A stretch of 64,000 nucleotides of DNA. It comes from Alphaproteobacteria bacterium. Its GTDB lineage: Bacteria; Pseudomonadota; Alphaproteobacteria; UBA828. Positions 44,663 to 62,967 of this stretch are shown here, one piece after another (the stretch's first letter is position 1; the number at the start of each line of letters is the position of its first letter). A program made the translations under genes and the position numbers. The DNA is taken from contig VGET01000001.1 in the NCBI GenBank assembly GCA_016869195.1, forward strand, positions 2,800 to 66,799. Reading direction: 5' to 3'. The notes beneath the pieces were generated by a model. The model did not search any database and was not told where the DNA came from. It saw nothing but the letters and a program-made list of their open reading frames with translations.

Positions 44663-45525
44663 CGCTTTTCGAGCGCGTCCCACGCGGGCTTATTCACGAC
44701 CCGTTGGCGCTCGGCGAAGCTCGCCAGCCGATCGCCGACGCGATCGAGCCCGCCATCTGCTTTGAGCGCTGAGAGCACCTCCTGCATCGCCTTGACCGCG
44801 GCTTGAAGCGCCGCGTTGGCGTAAAGCACGAGCCCGAAGCCAAGGCCCGCAAGCTCCGCCTGGGAGAGCGCTGGCGTGCGGCCGCCAAACACCATGTTCG
44901 CCAGCTGCGGTACGCTGAGCGTACGCGCAATCTGGGCCAGCTCGTCGCGGCTCTCAGGGGCCTCGACGAAGGTCGCGTCCGCGCCGGCCTCGATGTAGGC
45001 GCCCGCGCGATCGAGCGCAGCAGCGAGGCCCTGAACCGAACGCGCGTCGGTGCGCGCGATGATGAGAAAATCACGCGAGGTGCGCGTATCGACCGCGGCT
45101 TTCACCTTCGCGACCATCTCCCCGGTCGGAATTACTTCCTGGCCAGAGAAGTGCCCGCAGCGCTTCGGGAACACCTGATCCTCGACCTGGATCGCATTGG
45201 CGCCGGCGCGTTCCAACGTACGCACGGTGCGCACCATGTTGAGCGGGTTGCCGAAGCCAGTGTCGGCATCGACCACGAGCGGCAGATCGCAGATCTCAGC
45301 GATGGTGGTCACCGTGTCGGCCAGCTCGCTCAACGTGACGAGCCCGATATCGGGCAGGCCGAGGCGCGTATTGGCGATGCCGGCACCGGTGACATAGACG
45401 GTCTCAAAGCCGGCATCGGCGATGAGGCGTGCGGTCAGCGCATTCGCTGCGCCGGGCGCCAGCACCGCGCGCCGCGCTTCCAGCAAGCCGCGCAGGCGCG
45501 CGCCCTTGGTCACCTCACTCGCCAT
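44650..45525 (-). CDS. Isocitrate lyase/PEP mutase-family enzyme (2-methylisocitrate lyase / carboxyvinyl-carboxyphosphonate phosphorylmutase-like).
   Basis: ..ANALTARLIADAGFETVYVTGAG.. and ..IARTDA.. are motifs of the ICL/PEPM superfamily. Confidence 0.55.
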   Translation of the reverse strand: MASEVTKGARLRGLLEARRAVLAPGAANALTARLIADAGFETVYVTGAGIANTRLGLPDIGLVTLSELADTVTTIAEICDLPLVVDADTGFGNPLNMVRTVRTLERAGANAIQVEDQVFPKRCGHFSGQEVIPTGEMVAKVKAAVDTRTSRDFLIIARTDARSVQGLAAALDRAGAYIEAGADATFVEAPESRDELAQIARTLSVPQLANMVFGGRTPALSQAELAGLGFGLVLYANAALQAAVKAMQEVLSALKADGGLDRVGDRLASFAERQRVVNKPAWDALEKRYRT

Positions 45526-45532
45526 GCCAGCC

Positions 45533-46813
45533 TCACTCCCAAGATTGCGCGAGCCGCAAAGGGTCGGGCGGCGGCAGCGGCTTCAGTTTTGTTCGTGGAA
45601 CATAGAGCTGTCCGGCCATGAGCCGACGCGCGGTGCGGAACACGGTCGCTGTGCCGGCACGGGCCGTGCCATTTTCGATTCGCACCGAGGCATCGACCGG
45701 CAGCACGCCCGAGGGATGGCCGATACGCACCGGCGCGCCGGCCGATTCAGGCGGACGACAGAGCGCATGCACGAGCGTGCCGGGCACGCGCGCCGCAACC
45801 GCCGCACACATGGCGCCGGTCAAGGGAATCGCGTTGTGCGGCACGCCCATCGAAATCATGCGGATCAAAACGTCGATCGACGCCGCCGGCAGGCGCCGCC
45901 CATCCAACAGGCGTGACTCGGCGGGCGCGGCCACCATCGCCACCTTCGGGCTCGAGGGCGTGCTTGTGGTCGCCTCCTCGGCGTTGCGCGCCAGCCCCAT
46001 CATCACCGCCGCCGCGCCGCGAATGGCTTCGAGGGTGCGCATGATCATGGCGTTGGCGCGGATCTGACTGGGTTGCTCCGTCGCACTTGCGCCAAGCGCG
46101 CGCGCCTCGACGAACAGCACCGGGTTGGTGGCATCGACCAGCGAGCCCTGGATCTTGCGCCCATCAGGCAGTGCGAACTCGTCGATCGTATTTCCGGTCG
46201 GCAGCAACCGCCCCGACACGGCGCCACCCGGATCCTCGAAATCGAGGCGGATGCGGGACCCCGCACCCGCGACGCCATCGATCGTGAAGCCACCGTCGAT
46301 CGCCGCCGCGCCGCCCCGTGCCTCGAGATGACACAGCACGCGCTTCTTCGTGTTGGTGTTGAACATGCGCACGGTGCACGGGCCATCCTTGGCCGTGACG
46401 AGCCCTTCATCGAGCGCGAAGGCGCCGACCGCGGAGGAGAGATTGCCGCAATTGGAGCGGTAATCGACCATGGCGATATCGACCGCGACCTGCCCGAACG
46501 TGTAGTCGATATCGCAATCAGGCCGCGCCGAGGGCTCGATGATCATCACCTTGGAGAGCGAGGAAATGCCGCCGCCCATGCCATCGAGCTGGCGGCCATA
46601 GGAATCCGGGCTGCCGAGCGCGGCCGTGAAGACGGCGTCCCACAGCGCGCGCTCGATCGGCAGATCGCGCTTGTGGAAAAAGAGCCCCTTGCTCGAGCCG
46701 CCTCGCATGAAGATGGCGGGCAGCGTCGTTTGATCCACGCCCCTGCCCTCGCGCTCAGGCCGCCGAGGGCTGGCGCACGCGCGCCGCCGCATGCTGTCCT
46801 GCAGCCCGGCCAA
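45533..46813 (-). CDS. PrpF-family isomerase (2-methylaconitate/aconitate isomerase-like, DUF453).
   Basis: ..LPAIFMRGGSSKGLFF.. matches the conserved PrpF N-terminus. The true start is probably internal (GTG near 46738). Confidence 0.55.
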   Translation of the reverse strand: MAGLQDSMRRRACASPRRPEREGRGVDQTTLPAIFMRGGSSKGLFFHKRDLPIERALWDAVFTAALGSPDSYGRQLDGMGGGISSLSKVMIIEPSARPDCDIDYTFGQVAVDIAMVDYRSNCGNLSSAVGAFALDEGLVTAKDGPCTVRMFNTNTKKRVLCHLEARGGAAAIDGGFTIDGVAGAGSRIRLDFEDPGGAVSGRLLPTGNTIDEFALPDGRKIQGSLVDATNPVLFVEARALGASATEQPSQIRANAMIMRTLEAIRGAAAVMMGLARNAEEATTSTPSSPKVAMVAAPAESRLLDGRRLPAASIDVLIRMISMGVPHNAIPLTGAMCAAVAARVPGTLVHALCRPPESAGAPVRIGHPSGVLPVDASVRIENGTARAGTATVFRTARRLMAGQLYVPRTKLKPLPPPDPLRLAQSWE

Positions 46814-48254
46814 AGACCGCGCCGCGCAGCACCGAGGTTGCCCCGGTATAGGTCCCGTAATAAAGGCCGATCACCTCGCCGCCCGCGTAAAGGCCGGGGA
46901 TCACCACGCCATCACCGTCAAGCACCTGGGCGTCGCGATTGACCTTTAGGCCGCCGAAGGTGAAGCAATTGGCGCAGATGATCGGATAAGCGAGGAACGG
47001 CGCGCGATCGATCGGCCGTGCCCAGTTCGATTTCTTCGGGTCGAGCCCATGGGTCGCGAGACCGTCCGTCGCGAGCGGCTTGAACGGGGCATTGCTCGTG
47101 CAGGCCGCGTTGTAGCGCGCGATCGTCTCGCCCAGCGCCGCGCCATTGATGCCGAGCTGCTCCGCGAGCGAAGTGATGCTTGGCGCGCTGATCGGTGGCC
47201 GATCCGTGCGCACCGATTTCTTCCAGTTCGGCACATCGTCAATTTTCGAATCAAGGATGACCCACGCGATGCCCTCGGGCTGATGCCAGATGCGCCGCGT
47301 GATCCCCTCATAGGTGGCATCCACCGTGCTGGGCGCCTCATCGAGGAAGCGCTGACCGAGCCTGTTCACCAGAATGCCGTAGTTGAACACCATGATGACG
47401 GGCTCCGGCTGGCCCGAGCGTGGATCGATCGGCTCGGCATGGAACGCGCCATAGTCGCCCGATGGGCACGCGCCGATCTCAAGCGCCATGCGAATGCCTT
47501 CGCCCTTGTTGTAATAGCCGCCGCGCGCGACCGGGCGGATATAGCGCGCCTCAGGCCCGACATAGCGGGCCAGCATCTCCGGGTTTCCCTCGAAGCCGCC
47601 TGAGGCCAGAATGATCGAGCCGCCGATGAAGCTGCGGGTCGCGCCGGATTTGTCCGTAGCGCGCACGCCGATGACGGCGCCGGCCTCGTTGCGCACCAGC
47701 GAGCGCGCCGAAGTTTCATAGAAGATCTCGATGCCGTTGGCCTCGGCCCAGCCGGCGAGCGCCTCGACCAGCGCGAGGCCGCCGCCGATCGGCGCGATGC
47801 GCGTGGTGCAAGTGGTGATGAAGTAATTCGGCAGAAAGTCGAACTTCAGCCCGAACGACTTCAGCCATTGCAGGGTCGGCCCGGCACGCTCGGCGAAGCT
47901 GCCGATCAGTTCAGGATCGGTGAAACCTAGGGTCTTCACAATCGAAGGCCAGTGCTCATAGGCGTTGCCGGCCTCGCGCACCAGCGCGGGATCAAGGTAG
48001 TGGCCCGAGTTTTCGGCCAGATGATGTTCGAAATCATCCGCCACTTCGTGCTCGCTCTTCATGCGCATGAAGGCCTCGGTCCAGCGCGTGTTGCCACCGC
48101 GCTCCTCGCGCGGCGCGCGCTCGAGCACGGCGACCCGGGCGCCCGCCTGCCGCGCCGAGACCGCGGCGGACAACCCGGCAATGCCGCAGCCGACCACCAC
48201 CACGTCGTACGTTTGTGACCCCATGACCGACCCTATCTCGCCCGCCTGTTTCAC
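46755..48254 (-). CDS. FAD-dependent oxidoreductase of the fumarate reductase/succinate dehydrogenase flavoprotein type (TcuA-like).
   Basis: It has an N-terminal DVVVVGCGIAGLSAA dinucleotide-binding motif and a C-terminal ..GLYAGGEV.. motif. The likely start is 48224. Confidence 0.5.
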   Translation of the reverse strand: MKQAGEIGSVMGSQTYDVVVVGCGIAGLSAAVSARQAGARVAVLERAPREERGGNTRWTEAFMRMKSEHEVADDFEHHLAENSGHYLDPALVREAGNAYEHWPSIVKTLGFTDPELIGSFAERAGPTLQWLKSFGLKFDFLPNYFITTCTTRIAPIGGGLALVEALAGWAEANGIEIFYETSARSLVRNEAGAVIGVRATDKSGATRSFIGGSIILASGGFEGNPEMLARYVGPEARYIRPVARGGYYNKGEGIRMALEIGACPSGDYGAFHAEPIDPRSGQPEPVIMVFNYGILVNRLGQRFLDEAPSTVDATYEGITRRIWHQPEGIAWVILDSKIDDVPNWKKSVRTDRPPISAPSITSLAEQLGINGAALGETIARYNAACTSNAPFKPLATDGLATHGLDPKKSNWARPIDRAPFLAYPIICANCFTFGGLKVNRDAQVLDGDGVVIPGLYAGGEVIGLYYGTYTGATSVLRGAVFGRAAGQHAAARVRQPSAA

Positions 48255-48308: not shown

Positions 48309-50669
48309 ATGCCCTCGCGCCAGATGAACCCCGCCGCCATCGGACAGCCCCTCCGCCGGGTCGAGGACGAGCGCTTTGTGCGCGGCCTCGGCAGCTATGC
48401 CGAAGACATCGTGCTGGCGGGCGCGCTGCACGGCGTCGTGCTGCGCTCGCCCCATGCCCACGCTCGAATCGCGTCCCTAGACGCGTCGGCCGCCCGCGCG
48501 GCGCCCGGCGTCGTCGGGGTTCTCACGGCCGATGACCTGGACCGCGACCGGATCGGCCCCATGCCGTGCGCGAGCCTCGCGACCGGGCTCAAGGGCGTCG
48601 GCGGCAAGCCACCGATCATGCCGGCGCATTTTCCGCTGGCGCGCGGCACCGTGCGGCATGTGGGCGAGGCGGTCGCCTTCGTCGTCGCCGAATCGGAGGC
48701 GCAGGCGCGCGAGGCCGCCGAGCTGATCGCGGTCGAGTACGAGCCATTCGAGGCGGTCACAACTGCCACAGCGGCGGGAGACGACGGCGCGCCGCAGCTT
48801 TGGCCCGAGGCGACGCGCAATCTCGCGCTCGTCTGGGAGAACGGCGATGCTGTGGCGACCGAGGCTGCGTTCGCGCGTGCCGCGCACATCGCGCAGCTCG
48901 ATACGCTCAACAACCGGCTGATCCCGACGCCGATCGAGAACCGCTCGGCGCTCGGCGCCTTTGAGGCCGGCACCGGCCGCTACACGCTGTGGAGCCAGAC
49001 GCAAGGCGGCCACATGCTGCGGCGCCTTTTGGCCGAGAGCGTGCTCGGCGTGCCGGAGAACCGGGTGCGCGTGATCACGCCCGATGTCGGCGGCAGCTTC
49101 GGCATGAAGATGTACCTCTACCCCGAGCAGGCGCTGGTGCTCTGGGCGGCGCGGCGCTTCGGCCGGCCGGTGCGCTGGGTCGCCGAGCGCGGCGAGAGCT
49201 TCCTCGCCGACAGCCATGGGCGCGATCAACACATTACGGGCGAGCTCGCGCTCGATGAAGGTGGCCGAATCCTGGCCTTGCGCGTGCGCACCGAGGCGAA
49301 CATGGGCGCCTATTTCTCGACCCTCGCACCGATCATCCCGACCGCAGGCGGCACGCGCGGCCTGACCGGCGTCTACGACATCCCCACCGCGCACGTGCGC
49401 GTCAGACTGCGCTTCACCAACACCGCGCCGATCGATGCCTATCGCGGCGCGGGCAGGCCCGAGGCGGCCTTCCTGATCGAGCGATTGATCGAGATCGCCG
49501 CGCGCGACACGGGGCACGACCCGCTCGCGCTGCGCCGCCTGAACCTCGCGCGCATCGACAATACGCCGTACAAGACCGCGCTCGGGCTTAACATCGACAG
49601 TGGTGCGTTCGGGAAGAATCTCGACGACGCGCTCCACGCCGCCGATGCCACAGGGTTTCCAGCCCGCTGCGCCGCCGCGCGCGCACGTGGCCGGCTTGCC
49701 GGCCTCGGCGTCTCGCTCTATGTCGAACCCTGCGGCGGCGGGCGCGACCAATTGGCCGCGCTCCGCTTCGACCCGAGCGGCTCGGTGACCGTGCTGATCG
49801 GCTCGCAATCAAACGGCCAGGGCCACGAAACCGCGTACGCCCAGATCGTGGCCGATCGTCTGCAGCTCCCGATCGAATCGATCCGTGTGGTGCAGGGCGA
49901 CACCGACGCCGTGCCCTATGGTCGCGGCACCAGCGGCTCGCGCTCACTTCCGATTGGCGGCAATGCGCTGGCCGGTGCCGCCGAGCGTGCGCTCGCCAAG
50001 GCGAAGCTCATCGCCGCGCATCTGATCGAGGCGGCGGAAGCTGACCTTCGGTTCGAGGGCGGGCATTTCCGTGTCGCCGGCACCGACCGCGCGATCGCCA
50101 TGAAAGCCGTCATCGAGACCGCGTTCGAGCCAGCCCGCCTGCCGCCCGGCATGGCGCCGGGCCTCGACGAATCCCTGCATCACAACCAGGCGGCGCTGAC
50201 CTTTCCGAACGGCTGTCATGTCTGCGAGCTCGAGGTCGATGGCGAGACCGGCGTTGCCGAGATCACGCGCTACACCGTGGTCGACGATTTCGGCCGGCTG
50301 ATCAATCCGCTGCTGGTCGAGGGCCAGGTCCATGGCGGTGTGGCGCAGGGCATCGGCCAGGCGCTCTTCGAGCATGGCATCTATGACCCCGAGGGCGGGC
50401 AACTTTTGACCGGCTCGCTGATGGACTATGCTTTGCCCCGCGCCGATGCGTTGCCCGCGATCTCGCTCGGCTTCAACGAGGTGCCGTGCCGCACCAACGC
50501 TCTCGGCCTCAAAGGCTGCGGCGAGGCCGGCGCGATCGCGGCGCCCGCGGCCGTGATCAACGCGCTGGTCGATGCACTCAAGGAATTCGGCGTGCGCCAT
50601 ATCGAGATGCCGGCGACGCCTGAGCGACTCTGGCGCTTGATGCGGAACAGCAAACTCCAGGGCTCGTAG
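48309..50669 (+). CDS. Molybdopterin-binding large subunit of the xanthine dehydrogenase/aldehyde oxidase/CoxL family. It is an orphan, with no FeS or FAD subunit genes adjacent.
   Basis: It is 786 aa with an N-terminal Ald_Xan_dh_C-like region (PLRRVEDERFVRGLGSYAEDI) and MoCo-binding domains. Confidence 0.65.
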   Translation: MPSRQMNPAAIGQPLRRVEDERFVRGLGSYAEDIVLAGALHGVVLRSPHAHARIASLDASAARAAPGVVGVLTADDLDRDRIGPMPCASLATGLKGVGGKPPIMPAHFPLARGTVRHVGEAVAFVVAESEAQAREAAELIAVEYEPFEAVTTATAAGDDGAPQLWPEATRNLALVWENGDAVATEAAFARAAHIAQLDTLNNRLIPTPIENRSALGAFEAGTGRYTLWSQTQGGHMLRRLLAESVLGVPENRVRVITPDVGGSFGMKMYLYPEQALVLWAARRFGRPVRWVAERGESFLADSHGRDQHITGELALDEGGRILALRVRTEANMGAYFSTLAPIIPTAGGTRGLTGVYDIPTAHVRVRLRFTNTAPIDAYRGAGRPEAAFLIERLIEIAARDTGHDPLALRRLNLARIDNTPYKTALGLNIDSGAFGKNLDDALHAADATGFPARCAAARARGRLAGLGVSLYVEPCGGGRDQLAALRFDPSGSVTVLIGSQSNGQGHETAYAQIVADRLQLPIESIRVVQGDTDAVPYGRGTSGSRSLPIGGNALAGAAERALAKAKLIAAHLIEAAEADLRFEGGHFRVAGTDRAIAMKAVIETAFEPARLPPGMAPGLDESLHHNQAALTFPNGCHVCELEVDGETGVAEITRYTVVDDFGRLINPLLVEGQVHGGVAQGIGQALFEHGIYDPEGGQLLTGSLMDYALPRADALPAISLGFNEVPCRTNALGLKGCGEAGAIAAPAAVINALVDALKEFGVRHIEMPATPERLWRLMRNSKLQGS

Positions 50670-50792
50670 AGCCTTGGCCGGCGCGACTGCGTTGCGCGCT
50701 TTGGCGCGCGCACCAGCACGCGACGCCGCCTTTGCGGCGGAAGCCAAGCGAGCGGAGCGAGCGCCCGGCACGTCAGGGCGTCTCGATGATCA
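50670..50792 (+). repeat. Palindrome-rich intergenic repeat element, copy A (RIME-like).
   Basis: It shares GCCTTGGCCGGCGCGACTGCG ... GCCGCCTTTGCGGCGGAAGCCAAGCGAGCGGAGCGAGCGCCCGGC ... AGGGCGTCTCGATGAT with copy B, and has a 33-nt extra hairpin segment. Confidence 0.6.
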
Positions 50793-50814
50793 CTCTCGAT
50801 CAACGAGACTGACG

Positions 50815-51591
50815 TCAAGACGACCCGTCCTTCGACTCCGGCACAAGCTGCCCGCCGTCGACCACGATGGTCTGACCGGTGATGTAGGCGGCCTCCTTGG
50901 TGGCGAGGAAGAGCGCGGCATAACCGAGGTCCTCGACCGCACCAAGACGGCCGAGCGGGATCGCTGCCTTCGCCGCACGCCAATAGTCCTCGCCCATGGC
51001 GGCACCGCCCTCGGTCATGATGTTGCCCGGCAGCACCGCGTTCACCGTGATGCCGTATTTGGCGAACTCCAAGCAGGCCGCGCGCATGAAGCCGAGCTGG
51101 CCCGCCTTGCTCGCGCCGTAATGGCCGAAGCCGGGGGTCGAGGTAAATGGGCCGGTGATCGAGGAGGTCAACACGATGCGGGCCTGCTTGCTTTTCTTCA
51201 GGTGAGGCAGGCAGGCCTGCACCGACAGGAACGTGCCCTTCAGGTTGGTCGCCTGAACCTCGTCCCATTGCGCCGCCGTCATCTCCTCGATGCGCACCAT
51301 CGGGAACACGCCGGCATTGGCGCAAAGGATGTCAACGCCGCCATGGCGCTCGTCAGCGGTGCGGGCCATCGCCAATGTTGCCGCTTCATCCGAAACGTCC
51401 GCCGCAAAGGCCGAGGCGACATGGCCTGCCTTGACCAACTCGGCCGACGCCGCTTCGGCCGTCGCGCCGTCGCGCGCCACGATCAGCACCTTGGCGCCGT
51501 GCTCGGCGAACACGCGTGCGATGCCCTTGCCGATACCCTTGCTGCCGCCGGTCACGATGACGGATTTGCCCCTGATCGAATCAGCCAGCAT
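50815..51591 (-). CDS. SDR-family oxidoreductase.
   Basis: TGGSKGIGKG nucleotide-binding motif and the catalytic YGASK motif. Confidence 0.65.
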   Translation of the reverse strand: MLADSIRGKSVIVTGGSKGIGKGIARVFAEHGAKVLIVARDGATAEAASAELVKAGHVASAFAADVSDEAATLAMARTADERHGGVDILCANAGVFPMVRIEEMTAAQWDEVQATNLKGTFLSVQACLPHLKKSKQARIVLTSSITGPFTSTPGFGHYGASKAGQLGFMRAACLEFAKYGITVNAVLPGNIMTEGGAAMGEDYWRAAKAAIPLGRLGAVEDLGYAALFLATKEAAYITGQTIVVDGGQLVPESKDGSS

Positions 51592-51618
51592 CGCGGCCCT
51601 CCCGGTTCGTGCGCTCGT

Positions 51619-52947
51619 TTACGCGTCGAGCGATTGCTCCAGCGCCTCGATCAGCGTCGCGATATGCTCGCTTTTGAAGCAGAGCGGCGGGCGGATCTTG
51701 AGAATATTGCCGAAGCGCCCGGCCGCGCCGATCAGCACGCCGCGATCGCGCATGCCATTGATGACGCGCGTCGCCGTTTCCGCATCGGGGCGCGCGAGGT
51801 CACCGTCATGGCTGAATTCGACGCCGATGAAGAGGCCGGCACCGCGCACCTCGCTGATGCCCGGACAGCGTTGCCTCAGGGCCGCGATGCGCTCACGCAA
51901 TTCGGCACCGATGACGCGCGCATTCTCCTGCAGGCCCTCGTCGCGCAGCACGTCGAGCACGGCGAGGCCGGCCGCCGCCGCCACCGGATTGCCACCGAAG
52001 GTGTTGAAATAGCCGACCTCCGTGCAATAGGCCGCGAGCCGCTTGGGCGTTGTCGCGAGCCCGGCGATTGGAAAGCCATTGCCCATCGGCTTGCCCATGG
52101 TGACGATATCGGGCGTCAGACCATGGCGGCCGAAGCCCCACATGTGATCGCCCGTGCGGCCAAAGCCGGGCTGCACCTCATCGGCGATGAACAGCCCACC
52201 GGCCGCGCGCATGGCCTTCACCGCCGGCGCCATGAAGCCCTTGGGGTCGGCGAACACGCCGTCGCTCGAAAAGATCGAATCGCAGATCAGCGCCGCCGGC
52301 TTCAGCCCATCGCGCGCCAACGCCGCGATCGCCTGCTCGACCGCCTTGCCGAAACCACCCGCGATGTCATCGCCGTAGGCCGCGCGGCCGGGTGCCGGCA
52401 CAAGCCTTACATGGCGCCTGAGCCGGCCGGGCTTCAACGCCGAGGGCGAAATCTCGGTCACCGCGGTCGTGTTGCCGTGATAAGCGGTCTCGGTGACGAT
52501 GAAGCCCTCGGCGCCCGAGGCCGCGCTCGCGATGCGCATGGCGAGGTCATTGGCCTCGCTCCCCGAGCAGGTGAGCGCGACGTTCGACAGGCTCTTCGGC
52601 AAGGTCGCCTTGAGCCGCTCTGCATAGGTCTCGATGATCTCGTTCAGATAGCGCGTGCTGGTGTTGACGGTGGCGGATTGCTTCGCGATGGCCTCGGCGA
52701 CGCGCCTGTGGCTGTGCCCGATCGAGGGCACGTTGTTATAGGCATCGAGATAGCGCCGGCCATCGGCCGCGACCATCCACGCGCCCTCCGCCGCCACGAT
52801 GTTGAGCGGCGCGCGATAGAACAGCACGGAGGCCGCGCCGAAATTGCGCTCGCGTCGTTCCAGGAGCGCCTTGGTCTCAGCGTCGAGCCCGGCCTTGGCC
52901 TCGCGCTCGAAGGCGTTCAGCGACAACGCGTGTCGGACCTCGGCCAT
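51619..52947 (-). CDS. Class-III (AGXT2-like) PLP-dependent aminotransferase-fold enzyme, possibly an aminoalcohol-phosphate phospho-lyase.
   Basis: It has a PLP fold-type I class III layout (..LTCSGSEANDLA.. and ..DEVQPGFGRTG..). The start is at MAEVRHA, internal to the 488-aa ORF. Confidence 0.55.
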   Translation of the reverse strand: MAEVRHALSLNAFEREAKAGLDAETKALLERRERNFGAASVLFYRAPLNIVAAEGAWMVAADGRRYLDAYNNVPSIGHSHRRVAEAIAKQSATVNTSTRYLNEIIETYAERLKATLPKSLSNVALTCSGSEANDLAMRIASAASGAEGFIVTETAYHGNTTAVTEISPSALKPGRLRRHVRLVPAPGRAAYGDDIAGGFGKAVEQAIAALARDGLKPAALICDSIFSSDGVFADPKGFMAPAVKAMRAAGGLFIADEVQPGFGRTGDHMWGFGRHGLTPDIVTMGKPMGNGFPIAGLATTPKRLAAYCTEVGYFNTFGGNPVAAAAGLAVLDVLRDEGLQENARVIGAELRERIAALRQRCPGISEVRGAGLFIGVEFSHDGDLARPDAETATRVINGMRDRGVLIGAAGRFGNILKIRPPLCFKSEHIATLIEALEQSLDA

Positions 52948-52975
52948 GCCCTGCCTCCCAAGCTGATGCGCCGCC

Positions 52976-53977
52976 TCAGCCGAAGCGCGCGAGATAGCGC
53001 TCGGCGAGCTCGCAGCTGAACGAGCAATAGCCCGGGCCCGCGGTCTGCGCCAGCACCGTATCGGCGTGCGAGCCGAACCAAGCAAACACGGTCAGGCGGC
53101 GCAGCATGATGAAGGTCCAGATCTCGGCCTCATCCGCCGCGGAGAGCGGCCGCACCCGCCGATAGCCCTCGAGCCAGGCGGCCAACAGCGCGTCGAGGTT
53201 CGGGTCGTTCTCGATCAGCGAGACCGCGGTGGCGATGTCGTAGAGAAACCAGCCGAGGCCGCAATCATCGAAGTCGATGACGCGAACGTCGCCCTGGTGG
53301 ATCAGCAGATTGCCAAGGCGAAAATCAGCATGGATCAGGCCGAAGCGATCGGGCGCCGTGCCGTAGGCCCGCAGGCGCTTCCCGATCGTCGCGACCGCGC
53401 GCTCAAAGATCGGCCGCTGCTGGTGGGTGAGCTCCGGCCCGTCTTGCCACGGGCCCCAGTTTGGCGTGGCACCCAGGCAGTGCTCGAAATCCCAAGACAG
53501 GCGCTCGAAAAAGGGCGGCCGGCGCCAGCCCACACTGTGAACGTGGGTGCGCGCGGCCATCTCGCCGAGCTGGCGAAAGGCCGGCACGAGGTCGTGCTCG
53601 GGCGAAGGCTCGCGGCCGTCGATGAACTCGAAGAGCACGCAACGGCGCGGCGTCGGTACGCTTGGATGCGAAACGACCTGAATGTCCTCGCCATTGCGCG
53701 CCGGAATCGCCTGCGGCGTCTTGATCCCGGCCTCGGCCTGGAGCGCACGCATCCAGGCGAGCTCGGTGCGGATGCCATTGGTCGTGTTGTAGCCCTCGCG
53801 ATGCACGCGAAGGATGACGGGGCGACCACCACCGCGCGGCTCGACGCGATAGATAGAGTTTTCGGTGCGGTTGATCGGGCGCAGCGTGGCGCCCTCGAGC
53901 CCCCAATGGCCGAGCGCCGTCGCCGCCAGCGCATCGACATTGACGACGATCGGGGTGGGCGAGAGGACGTTGGTCAT
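52976..53977 (-). CDS. Aminoglycoside-phosphotransferase-fold small-molecule kinase (APH/choline kinase/homoserine kinase II family).
   Basis: It has the Brenner motif region HADFRLGNLLI and DFDDCG. Confidence 0.55.
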   Translation of the reverse strand: MTNVLSPTPIVVNVDALAATALGHWGLEGATLRPINRTENSIYRVEPRGGGRPVILRVHREGYNTTNGIRTELAWMRALQAEAGIKTPQAIPARNGEDIQVVSHPSVPTPRRCVLFEFIDGREPSPEHDLVPAFRQLGEMAARTHVHSVGWRRPPFFERLSWDFEHCLGATPNWGPWQDGPELTHQQRPIFERAVATIGKRLRAYGTAPDRFGLIHADFRLGNLLIHQGDVRVIDFDDCGLGWFLYDIATAVSLIENDPNLDALLAAWLEGYRRVRPLSAADEAEIWTFIMLRRLTVFAWFGSHADTVLAQTAGPGYCSFSCELAERYLARFG

Positions 53978-54349
53978 CAGATCAGGTCTGCCGGACGGAT
54001 TCTGGGCGCCCAGTCTTGCCGATCCCGGGCGCCCGAGCCAAGGGCACAGGCGTCACCCGTTGCGATCCATGGGGACACTTCTTTGCCATTGCCTTCAAAG
54101 GCTAAAGGTGTCTCGCCAATACGTACATTCCTACACGCTCGGACGAGCGGAAAGGGCACGCGACCAAGCCGCACGGAAAACGCTGAAGAACTTGGTTCTC
54201 CCGGTACGGTTGCCAGCGGCCGAGTGTAGATAGCGCGAAGTGCACTGCAGAACGCCCTCCGAAGGCGTGAGCCCTTCCGCGGCATAGCGACCCCGTTATT
54301 CGTCAGAAAATCGAGCTTATACCAAGGCGCGATGAGCTTGACTCATCGG

Positions 54350-54440
54350 GCCTTGGCCGGCGCGACTGCGCCGCGCCGCCTTGCGGCGGGAGCCAAGCGA
54401 GCGGAGCGAGCGCCCGGCGTTTGAGGGCGCCTCGATGTTC
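54350..54440 (+). repeat. Palindrome-rich intergenic repeat element, copy B (RIME-like).
   Basis: It is a direct repeat of copy A. The 21-nt left arm and the 28-nt core AGCCAAGCGAGCGGAGCGAGCGCCCGGC are identical. Confidence 0.6.
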
Positions 54441-54639
54441 GGTCACGATCATCGAGGTTTGGTATTACAAGGTGGATCCGTTCGAACCGGGGCGGATCAC
54501 GGTCAGCCAGGGCTGTCCAGCCCCTGGCAAGCACCCTTGTCCCCATCTAACATCCCGCACCGGCTCGGCGTGGAGAGCGGCCCGAACACGACATTCCTGA
54601 GCCTGGCCGGAGTCCGACGGGCCACGATCAGGTGGATCC

Positions 54640-55440
54640 ATGTCTTCGATCAATCTTCGCCAGCACGAGATTCTCGCCATCGCCCGCCAGTCGGGCAAGG
54701 TCACCGTTGAAGGCTTGGCGTTGCATTTCGATGTCACGCCGCAAACCATTCGCAAGGACCTGAACGAGCTCTGCGAGCAGCGGATGCTGACCCGCACCCA
54801 TGGCGGGGCGCTGCTCTCCTCGGGCGTCGAGAACGTGGCCTACGAGGCGCGGCGCCAGCTCGCCGCGGGAGAGAAACACCGCATCGGCCGGCGTGCCGCT
54901 GAGCTCATTCCCGACAACTGCTCGCTCTTCGTCAATATCGGCACCACTACCGAGGAGGTCGCCCGGGCGCTCGTGCAGCACGAAGGCCTGCTGGTGATCA
55001 CCAACGACCTGCACGTGGCCACCCTGCTTACCCCCTGCCCTGGCATCGAAGTGATCGTGGTCGGCGGCGTGGTGCGGCGCGCCGACGGTGGCATCGTCGG
55101 CGAGGCCGCGGTCGACTTCATCCGGCAGTTCAAGGTCGACTATGCGGTAATCGGCGTCTCCGCGATCGACGACGACGGAGCGCTTCTCGACTTCGATTAT
55201 CGCGAGGTCCGCGCGGCGCAGGCGATCATCGCCAACGCCCGCCACGTCATCCTGGTGTCGGATGCGATGAAGTTCACGCGCTCAGCGCCCGTACGGATCG
55301 GCCACATGAGCCAGGTCAGCACCTTCGTCACGGACCAGAAGCCGCCGGACGCCATTCTCGAGGTCTGCCGTGGCCATGATGTCAGCGTCGAGGTCGCCTC
55401 AAGCCCAGAAGAGGATGGCCAGGATCGCCCTGCGGCCTGA
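54640..55440 (+). CDS. glpR: DeoR-family transcriptional regulator (GlpR-like).
   Basis: It has an N-terminal HTH (RQHEILAIARQSGKVTVEGLA) and a C-terminal sugar-phosphate-binding domain. Confidence 0.7.
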   Translation: MSSINLRQHEILAIARQSGKVTVEGLALHFDVTPQTIRKDLNELCEQRMLTRTHGGALLSSGVENVAYEARRQLAAGEKHRIGRRAAELIPDNCSLFVNIGTTTEEVARALVQHEGLLVITNDLHVATLLTPCPGIEVIVVGGVVRRADGGIVGEAAVDFIRQFKVDYAVIGVSAIDDDGALLDFDYREVRAAQAIIANARHVILVSDAMKFTRSAPVRIGHMSQVSTFVTDQKPPDAILEVCRGHDVSVEVASSPEEDGQDRPAA

Positions 55441-55593
55441 CGTTCGAATTTTCGATTGTCTTTCGATTTCATTTCGTATTTCATCGTTTCCTGGACGAGA
55501 CCGGGAAATCGTCCGGAATTTCGTAAAGATTTGTTCGCAGCTGCAAAAAACGAAAAAAACAGAAATCTGGGTGATGGCCGTCGGGGAGGCTCG

Positions 55594-57135
55594 ATGCCGA
55601 GTGGGGATGGCCCCTACGATCTCGCGATCATCGGCGGCGGCATCAATGGCTGCGGCATCGCGCGTGACGCCGCCGGTCGCGGGCTCAAGGTATTTCTTGC
55701 CGAGCAGGACGATCTCGCCCGCGCGACGTCCTCCGCCTCGACCAAGCTCATTCACGGCGGGCTTCGCTATCTCGAGTATTTCGAGTTCCGCCTTGTGCGG
55801 GAGGCGCTGATCGAGCGCGAGGTACTGTTTCGCGCGGCGCCCCACATTGTCAGGCCGCTCCGCTTCGTGCTGCCGCACCACAAGGGCCTTCGTCCCTGGC
55901 CGATCCTGCTCTTCGGCCTCTTCCTCTATGACCATCTCGGCGGGCGCAAGATCCTGCCGCCGACGCGCGTGGTGGACCTTAGGCGCGACCCGCTCGGCGA
56001 GCCCCTACGGCCGAACTATGTACGAGGCTTCGAATACTCCGACTGCTGGGTCGACGATGCGCGCCTGGTCGTGCTGACCGCGCGCGACGCGGCCGATAGG
56101 GGCGCCGACATCAGCCCACGAACCCGCTGCCTGAAGGCACGACGCGACGGCGGCCTGTGGCGGTTGACGATCGAGCAGGCCGGATCAGACGGCGGCCACG
56201 CAATTGCGGCGCGCGCGCTGATCAACACCGCCGGACCCTGGGTCAGCGAAGTGCTCGGGTCTGTCATCGGGGTGCGCCAGCCGGACAGGATCAGGCTGGT
56301 CAAGGGCAGTCACCTGGTGCTCGACAAGCTCTATGCGCACGACCGCTGCTATACCTTCCAGAACGCGGATGACCGGGTGTGCTTCGCGATTCCCTACGAG
56401 GACGAGTTCACCCTGATCGGCACGACCGACGAGGACTATCGGGGCGATCTCGCGTTTCCGGCGATCTCCGACACGGAGCGCGATTATCTGCTCGAATCGG
56501 TCGGCACCTACTTAAAGCGGCCGGTAACGCGCGACATGGTGCGCTGGAGCTATTCCGGGATCAGGCCGCTGTACGACGATGGCGCAAGCAAGGCGCAAGA
56601 AGCCACACGCGACTATGTCCTGAAACTCGACGCCCCCGACGGGCACCCGCCGCTCCTCTCGGTGTTTGGCGGCAAGATCACCACCTACAGGCGCCTGGCC
56701 GAGGCGGTGATGGCCAAGATCGCACCGTTCTTTCCCACCGCTGGCCCGCCTTGGACGGCGACCGCCGCGCTGCCGGGCGGAGACTTCCCGCATGCCGAGT
56801 TGGAGCAGCGCGTCGCGGAGTTCGGCGCGCGCCACGCGTTCCTCCCGCCGCTTGAGCCGCGGCGCCTCTTTCGTGCCTATGGCACGCGCGCCGAGCGCAT
56901 CTTCGAGGGCGCGAGACGGGTCGAGGACATCGGCCAGCGCTTCGGCCCCTTGAGTGAGCGGGAAATCGACTACCTGATCGCAGAGGAATGGGCTCGCTCG
57001 GCCGACGACATCCTTTGGCGCCGGTCTAAGCTTGGGCTGCGCCTCGACCGCACGCAGCAGGCCGCGTTGTCGAGCCTCTTGGCGGCGCGGGGACTCGAGG
57101 CGCCGGCCCCACGGGCCGGTGCGGGCCGTGGGTGA
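55594..57135 (+). CDS. glpD: Glycerol-3-phosphate dehydrogenase (FAD-dependent, GlpD).
   Basis: It has an N-terminal FAD motif DLAIIGGGINGCGIARDAAGRG and is GlpD-like throughout. The start is at 55594, internal to the track ORF. Confidence 0.8.
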   Translation: MPSGDGPYDLAIIGGGINGCGIARDAAGRGLKVFLAEQDDLARATSSASTKLIHGGLRYLEYFEFRLVREALIEREVLFRAAPHIVRPLRFVLPHHKGLRPWPILLFGLFLYDHLGGRKILPPTRVVDLRRDPLGEPLRPNYVRGFEYSDCWVDDARLVVLTARDAADRGADISPRTRCLKARRDGGLWRLTIEQAGSDGGHAIAARALINTAGPWVSEVLGSVIGVRQPDRIRLVKGSHLVLDKLYAHDRCYTFQNADDRVCFAIPYEDEFTLIGTTDEDYRGDLAFPAISDTERDYLLESVGTYLKRPVTRDMVRWSYSGIRPLYDDGASKAQEATRDYVLKLDAPDGHPPLLSVFGGKITTYRRLAEAVMAKIAPFFPTAGPPWTATAALPGGDFPHAELEQRVAEFGARHAFLPPLEPRRLFRAYGTRAERIFEGARRVEDIGQRFGPLSEREIDYLIAEEWARSADDILWRRSKLGLRLDRTQQAALSSLLAARGLEAPAPRAGAGRG

Positions 57136-57284
57136 GGGCATGACAAACCCGCGATCAGGTTTCCACGAGGCTTTCCGATTCGCGCACGGGACCGAAGGCG
57201 GGCGCGAATCACGGTTCGACCGGGCGAGCGTGCGCTCCGGTTGGGCTCCAAAATCAAGCCGCACGCACTAGGGAGGACAGAGCG

Positions 57285-59027
<1,743 letters not shown>

Positions 59028-59137
59028 TCGCGACTTCTTCGCTCGCGATACACTCCCGGAGAGTCCCCTGTGCTCTCCGGGAGTTCTGCGTCACATTGAG
59101 ACGATCCGTCACGGGGGCTTGGGGATAGGGCTCGCGG

Positions 59138-60211
59138 ATGACACTCGAGCTGAGACAGGTGAGCAAGCGCGTGGGTGCCGATGTGCACATCCACGAGACC
59201 AGCCTCATGCTGGAGCCCGGCAGCTTCAACATCCTGCTCGGCACGACCTTGGCCGGAAAGACCACGTTGATGAAGCTGATGGCGGGGCTCGATCGGCCGA
59301 GTACCGGCTCGATCTGGTTCGACGGCCAGAACGTGACCGGTGTTTCCGTGCAGAAGCGCAATCTCTCGATGGTCTATCAGCAGTTCATCAACTACCCGAA
59401 TCTGAGCGTCTACGAGAATATCGCGTCGCCCCTGCGCGTGGCCGGCGTTGCACGACGTGAGATCGATGCGCGCGTCCAGGAGGTGGCGGAGCTCTTGCGG
59501 CTGACTCCCATGCTGAAGCGCCGGCCGAGCGAGCTCTCCGGCGGCCAGCAGCAGCGCACCGCGCTCGCGCGCGCGCTCGCTAAGGAGTCGAGCCTCATTC
59601 TGCTTGACGAGCCGCTCGCCAACCTCGACTACAAGCTTAGGGAGGAGCTTCGCGACGAGCTGCCGAAGCTCTTCGCCGATCGCAACTGCATCGTCGCCTA
59701 CGCCACCACGGAGGCCTCCGAGGCGCTGCTGTTCGGCGGTAACACGGCGACCCTGCATGAGGGCCGCGTGACCCAGTTCGGGCCGACCTCGACGATCTAC
59801 CGCCGCCCCAATACACTGACAAGCGCAAGAGTCTTCTCCGACCCGCCGATCAACGTCGCGCGGATCCGAAAAGCGGGCGATGAGATCGTCGTCGGCGAAC
59901 GCGTGCGGTGGCCGGTTGGGCGCGCGGCACGTCATCTCGCCGATGGCGACTATTCGATCGGCATCCGCCCGCACCACATCACACCCCATCGCGGCAACGA
60001 GGGTAGCGCGACGATCGAAGGTCGCGTGCTGGTCGCGGAACTGAGTGGGTCGGAAAGCGTCGTCCATTTCGACATGGACGGTCAGACCTGGGTCTCTCAA
60101 TCGCAGGGAATTCACCCGTTCGAGGTCGGTTCGCTGACGCGGCTTCAGGTCGATGTCGAGCGCGGCTTCATTTTCAGCGCGGACGGCGACCTGATGGCTG
60201 GAGGCGATTGA
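59138..60211 (+). CDS. glpS: ABC transporter ATP-binding protein (GlpS-like).
   Basis: It has a degenerate Walker A (GTTLAGKTT), an LSGGQQQR signature and a MalK-like C-terminal domain. Confidence 0.6.
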   Translation: MTLELRQVSKRVGADVHIHETSLMLEPGSFNILLGTTLAGKTTLMKLMAGLDRPSTGSIWFDGQNVTGVSVQKRNLSMVYQQFINYPNLSVYENIASPLRVAGVARREIDARVQEVAELLRLTPMLKRRPSELSGGQQQRTALARALAKESSLILLDEPLANLDYKLREELRDELPKLFADRNCIVAYATTEASEALLFGGNTATLHEGRVTQFGPTSTIYRRPNTLTSARVFSDPPINVARIRKAGDEIVVGERVRWPVGRAARHLADGDYSIGIRPHHITPHRGNEGSATIEGRVLVAELSGSESVVHFDMDGQTWVSQSQGIHPFEVGSLTRLQVDVERGFIFSADGDLMAGGD

Positions 60212-61278: not shown

Positions 61279-61282
61279 GCGC

Positions 61283-62151
<869 letters not shown>

Positions 62152-62152
<1 letters not shown>

Positions 62153-62952
62153 TGGGACGCGCCCGCGGCCTGGTGCCGGCTGTCTACATTCTCTTTGTGC
62201 TGCTGCCGATCTACTGGCTGCTCAACATGTCGTTCAAGACCACGAACGAGATCCTCGGCTCGTTCACGCTGTTCCCGAGCGAGTTCACCGTCGAGAACTA
62301 CACCAAGATTTTCAGCGACCCGACCTGGTATGGCGGTTATATCAACTCGCTGATCTACGTCGTCATCAACACCGTGCTGTCAGTCGCCGTCGCGCTGCCG
62401 GCCGCCTATGCCTTCTCGCGCTATCGCTTCCTCGGCGACAAGCACCTCTTCTTCTGGCTGCTCACCAACCGCATGGCGCCACCGGCGGTGTTTGCCCTGC
62501 CCTTCCTCCAGCTCTATTCTGCGGTCGGCCTGTTCGATACCCCGATCGCCGTCGCGCTCGCGCACACGCTCTTCAACGTGCCGCTCGCCGTGTGGATTCT
62601 CGAGGGCTTCATGTCAAGCGTGCCGAAGGAACTCGACGAGACCGCCTACGTCGACGGCTATTCGTTCTGGCGTTTCTTCCTTCGCATCTTCGTCCCGACC
62701 ATCGCGGCGGGCATTGGCGTCGCGGCCTTCTTCTGCTTCATGTTTTCCTGGGTCGAGCTTCTGCTGGCAAAGACGCTCACCTCCGTCGAGGCGAAACCGA
62801 TCGCGGCGACGATGACCCGAACGGCGAGCACGTCGGGCTACGAGCTTGGCCTGCTCGCGGCGGCCGGCGTGCTCACCATCATTCCCGGTGCCTTCGTGAT
62901 CTATTTCGTGCGGAACTACATCGCGAAGGGCTTCGCCCTGGGCCGCGTGTGA
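62152..62952 (+). CDS. glpQ: ABC transporter permease (GlpQ-like, MalG/UgpE type).
   Basis: The ATG overlaps the glpP stop codon (ATGA), and it has the EAA-loop motif ..DETAYVDGYS... It is the real gene within the spurious 545-aa ORF 61315..62952. Confidence 0.6.
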
Positions 62953-62967
62953 AGGGAGGGTTCGGGC

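Follow-up and report, generated by a model that had tools for sequence, protein, structure and literature searches.

The locus lies within a 64-kb window, by which we mean the whole stretch of DNA that was analysed, and comprises three genes on the minus strand in the order APH-fold kinase, PLP enzyme and SDR (Table 1). The initial annotation had described a kinase followed, 28 nt downstream, by an enzyme of the class-III fold, and the gap between the two genes is indeed exactly of this length. Together with the 27-nt gap in front of the SDR and the GGGAGG ribosome-binding site found in each gap, this spacing supports an operon structure, and we infer that the three genes are co-transcribed as a single operon. 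The kinase ends at a TGA stop codon (52978–52976), as given by both the ORF listing and the translation. For the PLP enzyme, the mechanical ORF reaches back to a TTG at position 53085, and the start was placed at the ATG at 52947. Judged by its homologues, the resulting 442-aa form is the real gene product, because it is 100% identical over 442 aa to a database protein (P0001) and the homologues measure 436–454 aa. GC3 values of 0.84–0.85 in the kinase, the PLP enzyme and the SDR indicate that all three are real coding frames.

Table 1 Features of the three-gene locus and its upstream region (positions in the 64-kb window).
Feature	Position	Strand	Description
Window kinase	52976..53977	-	333 aa; amino-alcohol kinase, aminopropanol-kinase (APK) subfamily of the APH fold; operon gene 1
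HADFRLGNLLI	53300..53332	-	Residues 216-226; HxDxxxxN catalytic loop of APH-fold kinases; aligned with HADLRLANLLV of 6EF6
DFDDCG	53258..53275	-	Residues 235-240; metal-binding DFD motif; same letters in 6EF6
Kinase-PLP enzyme gap	52948..52975	-	Exactly 28 nt; ribosome-binding site GGGAGG at 52954-52959, sequence read directly
Window PLP enzyme	51619..52947	-	442 aa; ETNPPL/A1RDF1 (AGXT2L-like) clade, class-III fold; predicted amino-alcohol O-phosphate phospho-lyase
Lys286 codon	52090..52092	-	PLP Schiff-base lysine in TMGKPMGNG; aligns with GabT K268, invariant in 234 homologues
Lys417 codon	51697..51699	-	Takes the place of the arginine that binds the carboxylate in class-III transaminases (GabT R398)
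PLP enzyme-SDR gap	51592..51618	-	27 nt; GGGAGGG at 51597-51603, sequence read directly
Window SDR	50815..51591	-	258 aa; 6CI9/6CI8-group SDR; final operon gene
Intergenic region, kinase to divergent glpR-like gene	53978..54639	.	662 nt; presumed operon promoter/regulatory region, inferred only

The intergenic region upstream of the kinase holds one copy of a dispersed repeat; a credible ORF, an Rfam match and a sigma-70 consensus are all absent from it. Near the operon, no Rfam match was obtained, the cobalamin riboswitch included, and the only terminator-like matches lie inside genes and occur at the shuffle rate. A 102-aa ORF abutting the kinase start (53977–54285) was rejected as a gene: it has no Pfam match, failed the GC3/GC2 coding-frame filter and is not called in contigs of the same organism. 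DeoR genes flank homologous gene pairs in Oharaeibacter, Thalassospira and Roseospira. The DeoR protein of the window was nevertheless discarded as an orthologous pathway regulator, being only 28–31% identical to these flanking regulators, scoring best as GlpR and having glpD as its next gene, although it may possibly co-regulate the operon. Our search of the 64-kb window gave neither an aldehyde dehydrogenase nor a dedicated regulator, and transporters of the types present in related loci were absent as well.

The assignment of the first gene product to the APH fold, made in the initial annotation on the basis of the motifs HADFRLGNLLI and DFDDCG, holds, with both motifs located and a Pfam APH score of 99.6 bits. 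Among solved structures, its sole strong match is PDB 6EF6, the aminopropanol kinase of M. smegmatis (287 bits, 44% identity over 320 aa), for which this name is given in PMC7314540. Amicoumacin kinase follows with 64 bits, and aminoglycoside-resistance kinases are absent from the matches in this set. Likewise, the kinase stays far below the cut-offs of the NCBIfam models for homoserine kinase II (thrB_alt; 37.8 bits, cut-off 255.9) and for SrkA-type proteins (51 bits, cut-off 194), and a neighbour-joining tree without bootstrap places it inside the family containing 6EF6. By these comparisons, the closest characterised relative of the window kinase is APK, with homoserine kinase II, antibiotic kinases and SrkA more distant; the grouping with homoserine kinase II or antibiotic APHs that had been named as speaking against a kinase and phospho-lyase pair was not found. 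1-Amino-2-propanol would be the expected substrate, although the kinase is no more than 44% identical to the characterised enzyme.

The second gene product matches Pfam Aminotran_3 with 242 bits. In public annotation, it is labelled as an aminotransferase or as 4-aminobutyrate aminotransferase-like. Its best matches are A1RDF1 of Arthrobacter (5G4I; 338.7 bits, 43% identity) and human ETNPPL (6TOR; 314.7 bits, 40% identity), both of which are phosphoethanolamine phospho-lyases, whereas GabT and all other solved class-III transaminases, racemases and decarboxylases reach at most 164 bits and at most 30% identity. This placement was derived from PDB-wide score gaps, NCBIfam scores and active-site columns, with AGXT2, the true transaminase family nearest to the phospho-lyases, lying outside the comparison. 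The NCBIfam PbfA model stays at 187 bits, below its cut-off of 525, and the C-terminal domains of PRK06148, a kinase-aminotransferase fusion family, and of PRK06149 match with 449 and 390 bits, respectively.

The active-site columns point in the same direction. Residues that bind PLP are kept (K286, D256, Q259, T316 and Y156, corresponding to K268, D239, Q242, T297 and Y138 of GabT); these positions, i.e. the Schiff-base Lys, the Asp to the pyridine N, the Gln, the Thr and the stacking Tyr, are invariant in 234 homologues. Residues R398, E211 and R141 of GabT are replaced by K417, S228 and N159 in the window protein, by K/T/N in A1RDF1 and by K/C/H in ETNPPL, and the Lys at the R398 position recurs in 234/234 homologues. 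The alignment suggests that this loss pattern may mark the phospho-lyase family. The window PLP enzyme is a member of this clade of phospho-lyases and is predicted to eliminate phosphate and ammonia. The earlier proposal of an AGXT2L-like phospho-lyase instead of a transaminase has so far survived every sequence test run, both in the scores and at the carboxylate-handling positions, and a clustering with omega-transaminases, which would have weakened it, is not seen by score (114 bits to the omega-amino-acid:pyruvate aminotransferase 4UHM).

For the third gene product, we found motifs of the SDR fold (TGGSKGIG at residue 14, YGASK at residue 158) and a match of 266 bits (~58% identity) to PDB 6CI9/6CI8, compared with at most 157 bits to ordinary FabG structures. 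The top-scoring NCBIfam model, NF004202, is named only 'FabG' (362 bits, cut-off 333). We take 6CI8/6CI9 to be an aminopropanol dehydrogenase and the partner of the 6EF6 kinase, an assignment that fits the pattern in actinomycete loci, where a 6EF6-like kinase is directly followed by a 6CI9-like SDR. Since the characterised enzymes to which the window kinase and SDR are related are a 1-amino-2-propanol kinase and dehydrogenase, the SDR most likely acts before the kinase, interconverting aminoacetone and aminopropanol. The SDR is not obligatory, because the close relatives L086 and L087 and also locus L001 carry the pair of kinase and PLP enzyme without an orthologous SDR.

The linkage of these genes extends well beyond the window. 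In all five independent PLP enzyme homologues that were sampled (60–71% identical), an APH gene lies directly upstream, which argues against chance adjacency of the two genes, and an SDR is nearby in three. An APH gene is also present in the same cluster as relatives of A1RDF1 in Paenarthrobacter and Mycolicibacterium. Starting from the kinase, we compared 87 related loci, 55 of which hold an SDR orthologue (at least 50% identity) near the kinase and 51 a class-III enzyme of either of two types. Combined with the kinase, the ETNPPL-like lyase occurs in 15/87 loci, in none of which microcompartment genes were seen; a different, putrescine-aminotransferase-like enzyme occurs in 36/87, including 29 loci with microcompartment genes. 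The two types are never found together (0/87), as expected if both serve the same reaction downstream of the kinase. At the position of the transaminase arginine, the ETNPPL-like enzymes carry Lys (234/234) and the putrescine-aminotransferase-like enzymes Gln (28/28). Kinases partnered with the ETNPPL-like type fall into at least five separate places in the kinase tree (neighbour-joining, without bootstrap). One explanation, to which we give about even weight, could be that two unrelated class-III lineages each became a phospho-lyase acting after the aminopropanol kinase and repeatedly displaced one another.

Altogether, the observed gene order, the families to which the three proteins are assigned, the active-site pattern of a lyase and the linkage conserved across loci make it probable, in our estimation, that the genes constitute a single operon for the catabolism of aminoacetone and 1-amino-2-propanol, in a version of this route that does without a microcompartment. 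The initial annotation had left the substrate open; this can be narrowed, as the homology of the kinase and the SDR points to these two compounds. In the proposed route, the SDR would use a nicotinamide cofactor to interconvert aminoacetone and 1-amino-2-propanol, probably towards the latter, and the kinase would use ATP to phosphorylate the hydroxyl group, which yields 1-amino-2-propanol O-phosphate. The ETNPPL-like enzyme would then form an external aldimine with the amine and release phosphate by 1,2-elimination, and the enamine/imine produced would be hydrolysed to propionaldehyde and NH3. Phosphoethanolamine may be a further substrate of the lyase, yielding acetaldehyde. The aldehyde would be oxidised by an enzyme encoded outside the operon. 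Two neighbouring sets of genes were considered for this role and set aside: a convergent molybdopterin protein that resembles CoxL and glyceraldehyde dehydrogenase and scores below every cut-off, and PrpF-like and PrpB-like genes beside TcuA, which remain under the equivalog cut-offs. We claim no link to the pathway for either.

Several alternatives agree with parts of these data. The same kinase and phospho-lyase mechanism could serve ethanolamine as the physiological substrate, which would be converted via phosphoethanolamine to acetaldehyde, NH3 and Pi, with aminopropanol at most a side substrate. This fits A1RDF1 and human ETNPPL, which are the characterised proteins nearest to the PLP enzyme and act on phosphoethanolamine, the SDR-free pairs in L086 and L087, and the classical bacterial amino-alcohol kinase and phospho-lyase, both of which accept ethanolamine as well as aminopropanol. 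However, an SDR has no role in ethanolamine breakdown, yet one of the 6CI9 family (~58% identity) lies in the same inferred operon, and the sole close characterised relative of the kinase is the aminopropanol kinase, so that we consider this alternative unlikely.

It seems still less probable that the operon handles another hydroxylated amine, such as 5-hydroxylysine (cf. HYKK/PHYKPL) or glycerol-derived serinol or 3-amino-1,2-propanediol linked to the glycerol genes. The ETNPPL-like clade does include enzymes of differing specificity, and the kinases beside A1RDF1-type lyases are only ~32% identical to the window kinase, indicating that such modules have diversified. In addition, glpR-glpD and a glycerol-type ABC transporter are encoded divergently to the operon, and in the three other genera mentioned above the homologous pairs have unrelated DeoR regulators beside them. 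On the other hand, the window DeoR has low identity to those regulators and, with glpD starting 16 nt after it, looks like an ordinary GlpR, and in no other locus is the pair linked to glp genes. The kinase domains of PRK06148/PRK06149 also match the window kinase at only 32–60 bits, compared with 287 bits for the aminopropanol kinase.

The reduction or oxidation of the aldehyde by the downstream SDR, as suggested in the initial annotation, fared less well. That the SDR acts on the product of the lyase instead of before the kinase is unlikely, and we regard it as very improbable, even though it is encoded by the last gene of the operon and an aldehyde dehydrogenase gene is absent nearby. The protein sits in the tight 6CI9 subfamily and is distant from FabG, as its scores indicate, and this subfamily accompanies the kinase even in loci with their own aldehyde dehydrogenase. 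Furthermore, the SDR of the RMM/Aut locus, one of these loci, was demonstrated experimentally in the literature to be a 1-amino-2-propanol dehydrogenase.

We give hardly any credence to the view that the class-III enzyme is a genuine omega- or beta-alanine:pyruvate-type aminotransferase, which would turn aminopropanol into lactaldehyde or aminoacetone into methylglyoxal with the kinase acting elsewhere: it runs against the scores to lyases and transaminases (339/315 versus at most 164 bits), the Lys in place of the keto-acid carboxylate arginine with E211 and R141 also replaced as in the two lyases, and the transaminase activity that was reportedly absent in the A1RDF1 study, and it leaves the tight conserved coupling to the kinase unexplained. 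In its favour are the public annotation, schemes proposed in the literature in which the class-III enzyme encoded with the microcompartment is a transaminase, and a plant AGXT2-type protein, 36% identical to 5G4I, that was described as a real alanine aminotransferase.

The aminoacetone and 1-amino-2-propanol route, which we thus retain as the preferred reading, has its closest counterpart in the Rhodococcus-Mycobacterium microcompartment (RMM/AAUM/Aut) locus. According to the literature, this locus is induced by aminopropanol and encodes a 1-amino-2-propanol dehydrogenase, an APH phosphotransferase and a class-III enzyme. It shares with the window the same kinase family (44%), the same SDR family (~58%) and the same proposed chemistry from aminoketone via amino alcohol and O-phosphate to aldehyde. 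In contrast to it, the window contains no CoA-acylating aldehyde dehydrogenase, no permease, no AraC/GntR regulator and no shell proteins; tblastn with Pfam-confirmed representatives of PF00936 and PF03319 revealed none in the 64 kb. Moreover, the RMM/AAUM class-III enzyme is putrescine-aminotransferase-like and only ~25% identical to the ETNPPL-like one, the sole match in the window to a microcompartment-type class-III query (25.6% identity).

For the PLP enzyme, the closest solved structure is that of A1RDF1 (PDB 5G4I/5G4J) from Arthrobacter aurescens TC1, with the same PLP residues and a common pattern of Lys for Arg, Ser/Thr for Glu and Asn for Arg. Its orthologues are clustered with an APH kinase, a dehydrogenase and an amino-acid permease, but the neighbouring kinase (~32% identical to that of the window) and SDR (~31%) belong to other subfamilies, and its demonstrated substrate is phosphoethanolamine. 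The animal enzymes ETNPPL (AGXT2L1), PHYKPL (AGXT2L2) and HYKK (AGPHD1) share the lyase clade (40% to human ETNPPL) and the order of reactions, i.e. phosphorylation followed by elimination of phosphate and ammonia. They differ in that their genes are unclustered and their substrates are phosphoethanolamine and 5-phosphohydroxylysine. In the ~1000-aa fusions PRK06148/PRK06149, an N-terminal APH kinase is joined to a C-terminal class-III domain. Similarity to the window is high in the latter, but the window has two separate genes, its kinase matches the fusion kinase domain weakly (60/32 bits), and its proteins miss the whole-protein cut-offs of 1128/973 bits.

The oldest description of this chemistry comes from Pseudomonas and Erwinia, in which an amino alcohol kinase and an amino alcohol O-phosphate phospho-lyase (EC 4.2.3.2) were characterised biochemically in the 1970s, without genes. 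Their two-step route is identical, converting aminopropanol into propionaldehyde or ethanolamine into acetaldehyde, and by analogy the window gene pair may correspond to these activities. The mechanism would not surprise a specialist, nor is the pairing newly inferred from the animal enzymes. Those enzymes were reportedly identified in 2012 by following the clue given by kinase/AGXT2L-like pairs and fusions in bacteria, and the aminopropanol kinase is said to have been noted in 2018 as often associated with a candidate phospho-lyase. To our knowledge, the aminopropanol-phosphate phospho-lyase step has no experimental tie to any gene, and we know of no ETNPPL-like enzyme acting on aminopropanol phosphate.

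For the freshwater alphaproteobacterium, the sequence comparisons most likely mean that it carries three genes for the breakdown of aminoacetone and 1-amino-2-propanol by a route that is already known; the operon is a further example of this route, without the protein shell often encoded with it. The practical value lies in better annotation, as the labels 'aminotransferase' or GABA-aminotransferase-like and 'FabG' hide a catabolic pathway. As sources of nitrogen and carbon, this pathway would make available the threonine breakdown product aminoacetone and also aminopropanol or ethanolamine. At the same time, the window offers a simple, shell-free system of three genes for the aminopropanol-phosphate phospho-lyase step. 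The mutual exclusion of the class-III partners bears on the question, in the microcompartment field, of which reaction the RMM/AAUM signature enzyme carries out. If two class-III lineages did replace one another at this step, the shell-free operon would constitute independent genomic evidence that the signature enzyme is a phospho-lyase and not an aminotransferase.

The initial annotation described an APH-fold kinase gene immediately followed by a gene for an AGXT2-like enzyme. The open reading frames, kinase motifs, spacing and Pfam matches agree with this description and with its coordinates, but the claimed two-gene pair is part of a three-gene unit that includes an SDR. The kinase stop (52976) and the ATG of the PLP enzyme are separated by exactly 28 nt containing GGGAGG, and a 27-nt gap containing GGGAGGG leads on to the SDR gene. 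GC3 is 0.84–0.85 in all three frames, which are presumably co-transcribed. The unit is flanked on one side by a convergent molybdopterin-subunit gene and on the other by a 662-nt region, across which it diverges from a glpR-glpD-glycerol ABC cluster. A TTG-initiated form of the PLP-enzyme frame (to 53085) was rejected, because the 442-aa form is identical to the database protein P0001 and homologues measure 436–454 aa. P0001 is annotated as 'MAG ... Alphaproteobacteria', and identical contigs are found in JGI samples 3300020198 and 3300020200. At L088, a locus of the same organism from another sample with an identical lyase, the kinase (1971-2972) was called in two pieces of 284 and 43 aa, for which either a variant with a frameshift or faulty assembly may be the reason. 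In the window and at the related loci L089 and L090 the kinase gene is undivided, at 333 aa. The kinase of a further homologous locus, L086, is likewise split (259 aa and 43 aa).

Features of the operon and its surroundings, with dehydratase examples from homologous loci
Feature	Position	Strand	Remarks
TcuA-type / PrpF-like / PrpB-like three-gene cluster	44650-48254	-	
Lipid A acyltransferase and Zn-dependent alcohol dehydrogenase, then ORFs of 254, 447, 380, 159 and 111 aa	32819-38858	-	Pfam (first two genes)
Molybdopterin-binding subunit, stand-alone, 786 aa	48309-50669	+	CoxL/xanthine-dehydrogenase family; convergent with SDR
GC-rich mosaic repeat, two copies of ~120-150 nt	50663-50810 and 54316-54465		same orientation; bracket the three-gene operon
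SDR, 258 aa	50815-51591	-	third gene of the unit
PLP enzyme, 442 aa	51619-52947	-	ATG at 52947; Aminotran_3, 242 bits
Kinase, 333 aa	52976-53977	-	Pfam APH, 99.6 bits
HADFRLGNLLI	kinase residues 216-226	-	translation
DFDDCG	kinase residues 235-240	-	translation
Glycerol utilisation cluster	54640-63261	+	divergent from operon
B12-type dehydratase examples	L032:12834-15116, L044:12467-12895		also at many Hyphomicrobium-type loci

Scored against every PDB sequence, the PLP enzyme reached 338.7 bits with the Arthrobacter enzyme A1RDF1 (5G4I/5G4J, deposited as 'phospholyase') and 314.7 bits with the human ethanolamine-phosphate phospho-lyase ETNPPL (6TOR). The transaminase GabT scored 164 bits and omega-amino-acid:pyruvate aminotransferase 114 bits, and the other class-III transaminases, racemases, epimerases and dialkylglycine decarboxylase also fell below GabT. 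BLASTP identities follow the same order, with 43% to A1RDF1, 40% to ETNPPL and 30% to GabT. The best NCBIfam scores (449 and 390 bits) were to PRK06148/PRK06149, in their C-terminal part. The window kinase matches the N-terminal part of these ~1000-aa families, which thus represent a fused form of the pair. The NCBIfam model for the PbfA ammonia-lyase gave 187 bits, far under its cut-off of 525.

The active site was examined in an alignment of the window enzyme with 234 homologues, the two lyase structures, GabT and 28 class-III enzymes of the microcompartment type. The PLP residues K286, D256, Q259, T316 and Y156 are retained. At the positions that handle the substrate carboxylate in GabT, R398, E211 and R141 are replaced by K417, S228 and N159; the corresponding residues are K/T/N in A1RDF1 and K/C/H in ETNPPL, and the R398 position is Lys in all 234 homologues. 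Judged by the PDB score gap and by these replacements, the enzyme does not cluster with beta-alanine:pyruvate or omega-transaminases among enzymes of solved structure, to which AGXT2, the genuine transaminase family closest to the lyases, does not belong. For an alanine aminotransferase of the AGXT2 type from a plant, the reported identity to 5G4I is 35.8%, less than the 43% of the window enzyme.

The only strong PDB match of the kinase is 6EF6 (287 bits, 44% identity over 320 residues). Homoserine kinase II (37.8 bits against a model cut-off of 255.9) and the next-best structure, amicoumacin kinase (64 bits), lie far below it, and the kinase therefore does not cluster with homoserine kinase II or antibiotic APHs, the relatives that the initial annotation had set against its reading. 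The SrkA-type model likewise gave 51 bits against a cut-off of 194. 6EF6 is named aminopropanol kinase (PMC7314540). [quoted passage not shown]

For the SDR, 6CI9/6CI8 scored 266 bits (~58% identity) and two mycobacterial structural-genomics SDRs 265 bits, versus at most 157 bits for ordinary FabG structures. [quoted passage not shown] Five actinomycete loci, in which the gene directly after a 6EF6-like kinase (51–52% identity) encodes a 6CI9-like SDR (56–66% identity), provide an independent check on this identification. Instead of acting on the aldehyde product, as originally proposed, an SDR of this family would be expected to interconvert aminoacetone and 1-amino-2-propanol.

In the pathway we propose, the SDR would carry out this interconversion, the kinase would phosphorylate the hydroxyl group of aminopropanol, and the PLP enzyme would eliminate phosphate from the external aldimine, yielding an enamine/imine that would hydrolyse to propionaldehyde and ammonia. 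Family membership, the active-site pattern and the conserved linkage are observed; which substrates are used, which way the flux runs and what becomes of the aldehyde we infer. It is very probable that the pair is a kinase plus a phospho-lyase acting on a small amino alcohol. The initial annotation named no substrate; the 6EF6-type kinase and 6CI9-type SDR relatives point to aminopropanol/aminoacetone, which we consider a likely assignment. The main alternative, or an additional route, would lead from ethanolamine via phosphoethanolamine to acetaldehyde: phosphoethanolamine is the substrate of the closest lyases that have been assayed, and the SDR is missing in some relatives.

The linkage of the genes is conserved. 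At five sampled loci with close lyase homologues (Oharaeibacter, Thalassospira, Roseospira and two metagenome contigs; 60–71% identical to the window lyase), an APH kinase with 44–46% identity to 6EF6 lies directly upstream, and an SDR 58–59% identical to that of the window is nearby in three. The Paenarthrobacter orthologues of A1RDF1 (95% and 87% identity) are accompanied by a more distant APH kinase (~32% to the window kinase), a permease, another SDR and a TetR regulator, with an aldehyde dehydrogenase at one of the two loci. Two mycobacteria encode A1RDF1-like lyases (61–62%) beside an APK-like kinase (42% to 6EF6), a permease and a Zn-dependent dehydrogenase, without shell genes. Altogether, the score gaps, active-site columns and conserved linkage indicate that the core of the earlier reading, an amino-alcohol kinase followed by a phospho-lyase, was right.

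In addition, a kinase-seeded genome scan yielded 80 loci, mostly from Alphaproteobacteria with some actinomycetes (kinase identity 45–71%), whose neighbouring ORFs were called, clustered and named by Pfam. The SDR orthologue is the most constant partner. The kinase is usually followed by a different, 429-aa class-III enzyme, which is ~25% identical to the window enzyme and has putrescine and ornithine aminotransferases as its closest relatives; just 8 of the 80 loci have the ETNPPL-like enzyme as partner. Downstream of the 429-aa enzyme lie an aldehyde dehydrogenase, BMC-H (PF00936) and BMC-P (PF03319) shell genes and a putative tandem-domain shell protein, surrounded by AraC-type regulators, PotABCD-like or amino-acid permease transporters and an isochorismatase-family hydrolase. 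This arrangement is the RMM/Aut microcompartment locus (PMC4207490, PMC6620236). Some loci also encode a B12 diol-dehydratase. Across 87 non-redundant kinase loci, a B12-type diol/glycerol dehydratase, with fused large and medium subunits (760 aa) and a separate small subunit (142 aa), stands beside kinase, SDR and permease in 22, and the isochorismatase-family hydrolase occurs at 25. The dehydratase recalls the RMM2 locus type; at all six of L029, L032, L044, L046, L048 and L079 it is found without shell genes, together with an ETNPPL-like lyase.

Within 8-kb flanks of these 87 loci, the microcompartment-type class-III enzyme occurs in 36 and the ETNPPL-like enzyme in 15, and the two are never found together (0/87). 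As 7 of the 15 ETNPPL-like loci came via the lyase search, the proportions are biased, but the exclusivity is not. Shell or microcompartment aldehyde dehydrogenase genes accompany 29/36 microcompartment-type loci versus 0/15 ETNPPL-like loci. In a neighbour-joining tree without bootstrap, kinases with an ETNPPL-like partner fall in at least five separate places, and the window kinase, with those of L001, L086 and L087, adjoins Dongia-type microcompartment-locus kinases (60–64% identity). The R398 position is Gln in 28/28 microcompartment-type enzymes, so the transaminase arginine is absent there, too. This either/or distribution and the common arginine loss argue that both class-III lineages are phospho-lyases, the step being filled by non-orthologous displacement.

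Between the two repeat copies, blocks of 76 and 35 nt match at 86% identity, and copy A carries a ~30-nt insertion. Their 28-nt core is exact in both, found nowhere else in the 64-kb window and shared by 90 metagenome contigs; ~11 unrelated contigs from the same series of lake samples carry the whole element at 84–98% identity. The element can form several hairpins (copy B, z = -5.4 and -5.6), matches no Rfam family and looks like a dispersed REP/RIME-like intergenic repeat. Near the operon no Rfam family matched, riboswitches included, and neither a promoter nor a terminator consensus was convincing; the 64-kb window contains no aldehyde dehydrogenase, shell protein, or transporters and regulators of the related loci. 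The adjacent DeoR was rejected as an orthologous pathway regulator: it is of the GlpR type, and the DeoR genes that flank the pair in other genera are not its orthologues. Besides this regulator and GlpD (730 bits), the glycerol cluster encodes two ABC ATPases, a permease, a solute-binding protein of 580 aa and a small DUF2160 membrane protein. The molybdopterin subunit best fits glyceraldehyde dehydrogenase alpha (595 bits, cut-off 790), with no adjoining FAD or 2Fe-2S subunit genes; at L001, a homologue with 37% identity lies ~5 kb away from the kinase. The TcuA-type FAD tricarballylate dehydrogenase (380.7 bits) exceeds its cut-off of 369, and the PrpF-like isomerase and PrpB-like lyase (PEP-mutase family) are under their equivalog cut-offs; this is probably a tricarboxylate catabolic cluster, which we could not tie to the propionaldehyde product. 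The lipid A acyltransferase run resembles, by size and order, the Rhizobiales acpXL-lpxXL very-long-chain fatty acid lipid A cluster. G+C drops to ~0.60 at 8000-10000 and 16000-19372 (0.65–0.70 elsewhere in the window), where a phage-integrase-family gene (18305-19372), with a CopC/CopD copper-resistance fusion and a TonB-dependent receptor nearby, may mark a small integrated element.

Amino-alcohol kinase and phospho-lyase activities are known from 1970s work on Pseudomonas and Erwinia. Bacterial AGXT2L-like proteins that are fused to, or paired with, APH-type kinases reportedly gave Veiga-da-Cunha et al. (J Biol Chem 2012) the clue to what animal AGXT2L1/2 and AGPHD1 do. Mallette and Kimber, in 2018, are said to have found aminopropanol kinase widespread and commonly associated with a candidate phospho-lyase, with a non-microcompartment paralogue in a parallel pathway. 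The operon of this uncultured freshwater alphaproteobacterium thus adds one more member, without a shell, to a known kind of pathway. What we have not seen stated before is that two unrelated class-III partners are distributed in a strict either/or manner and have both lost the arginine.
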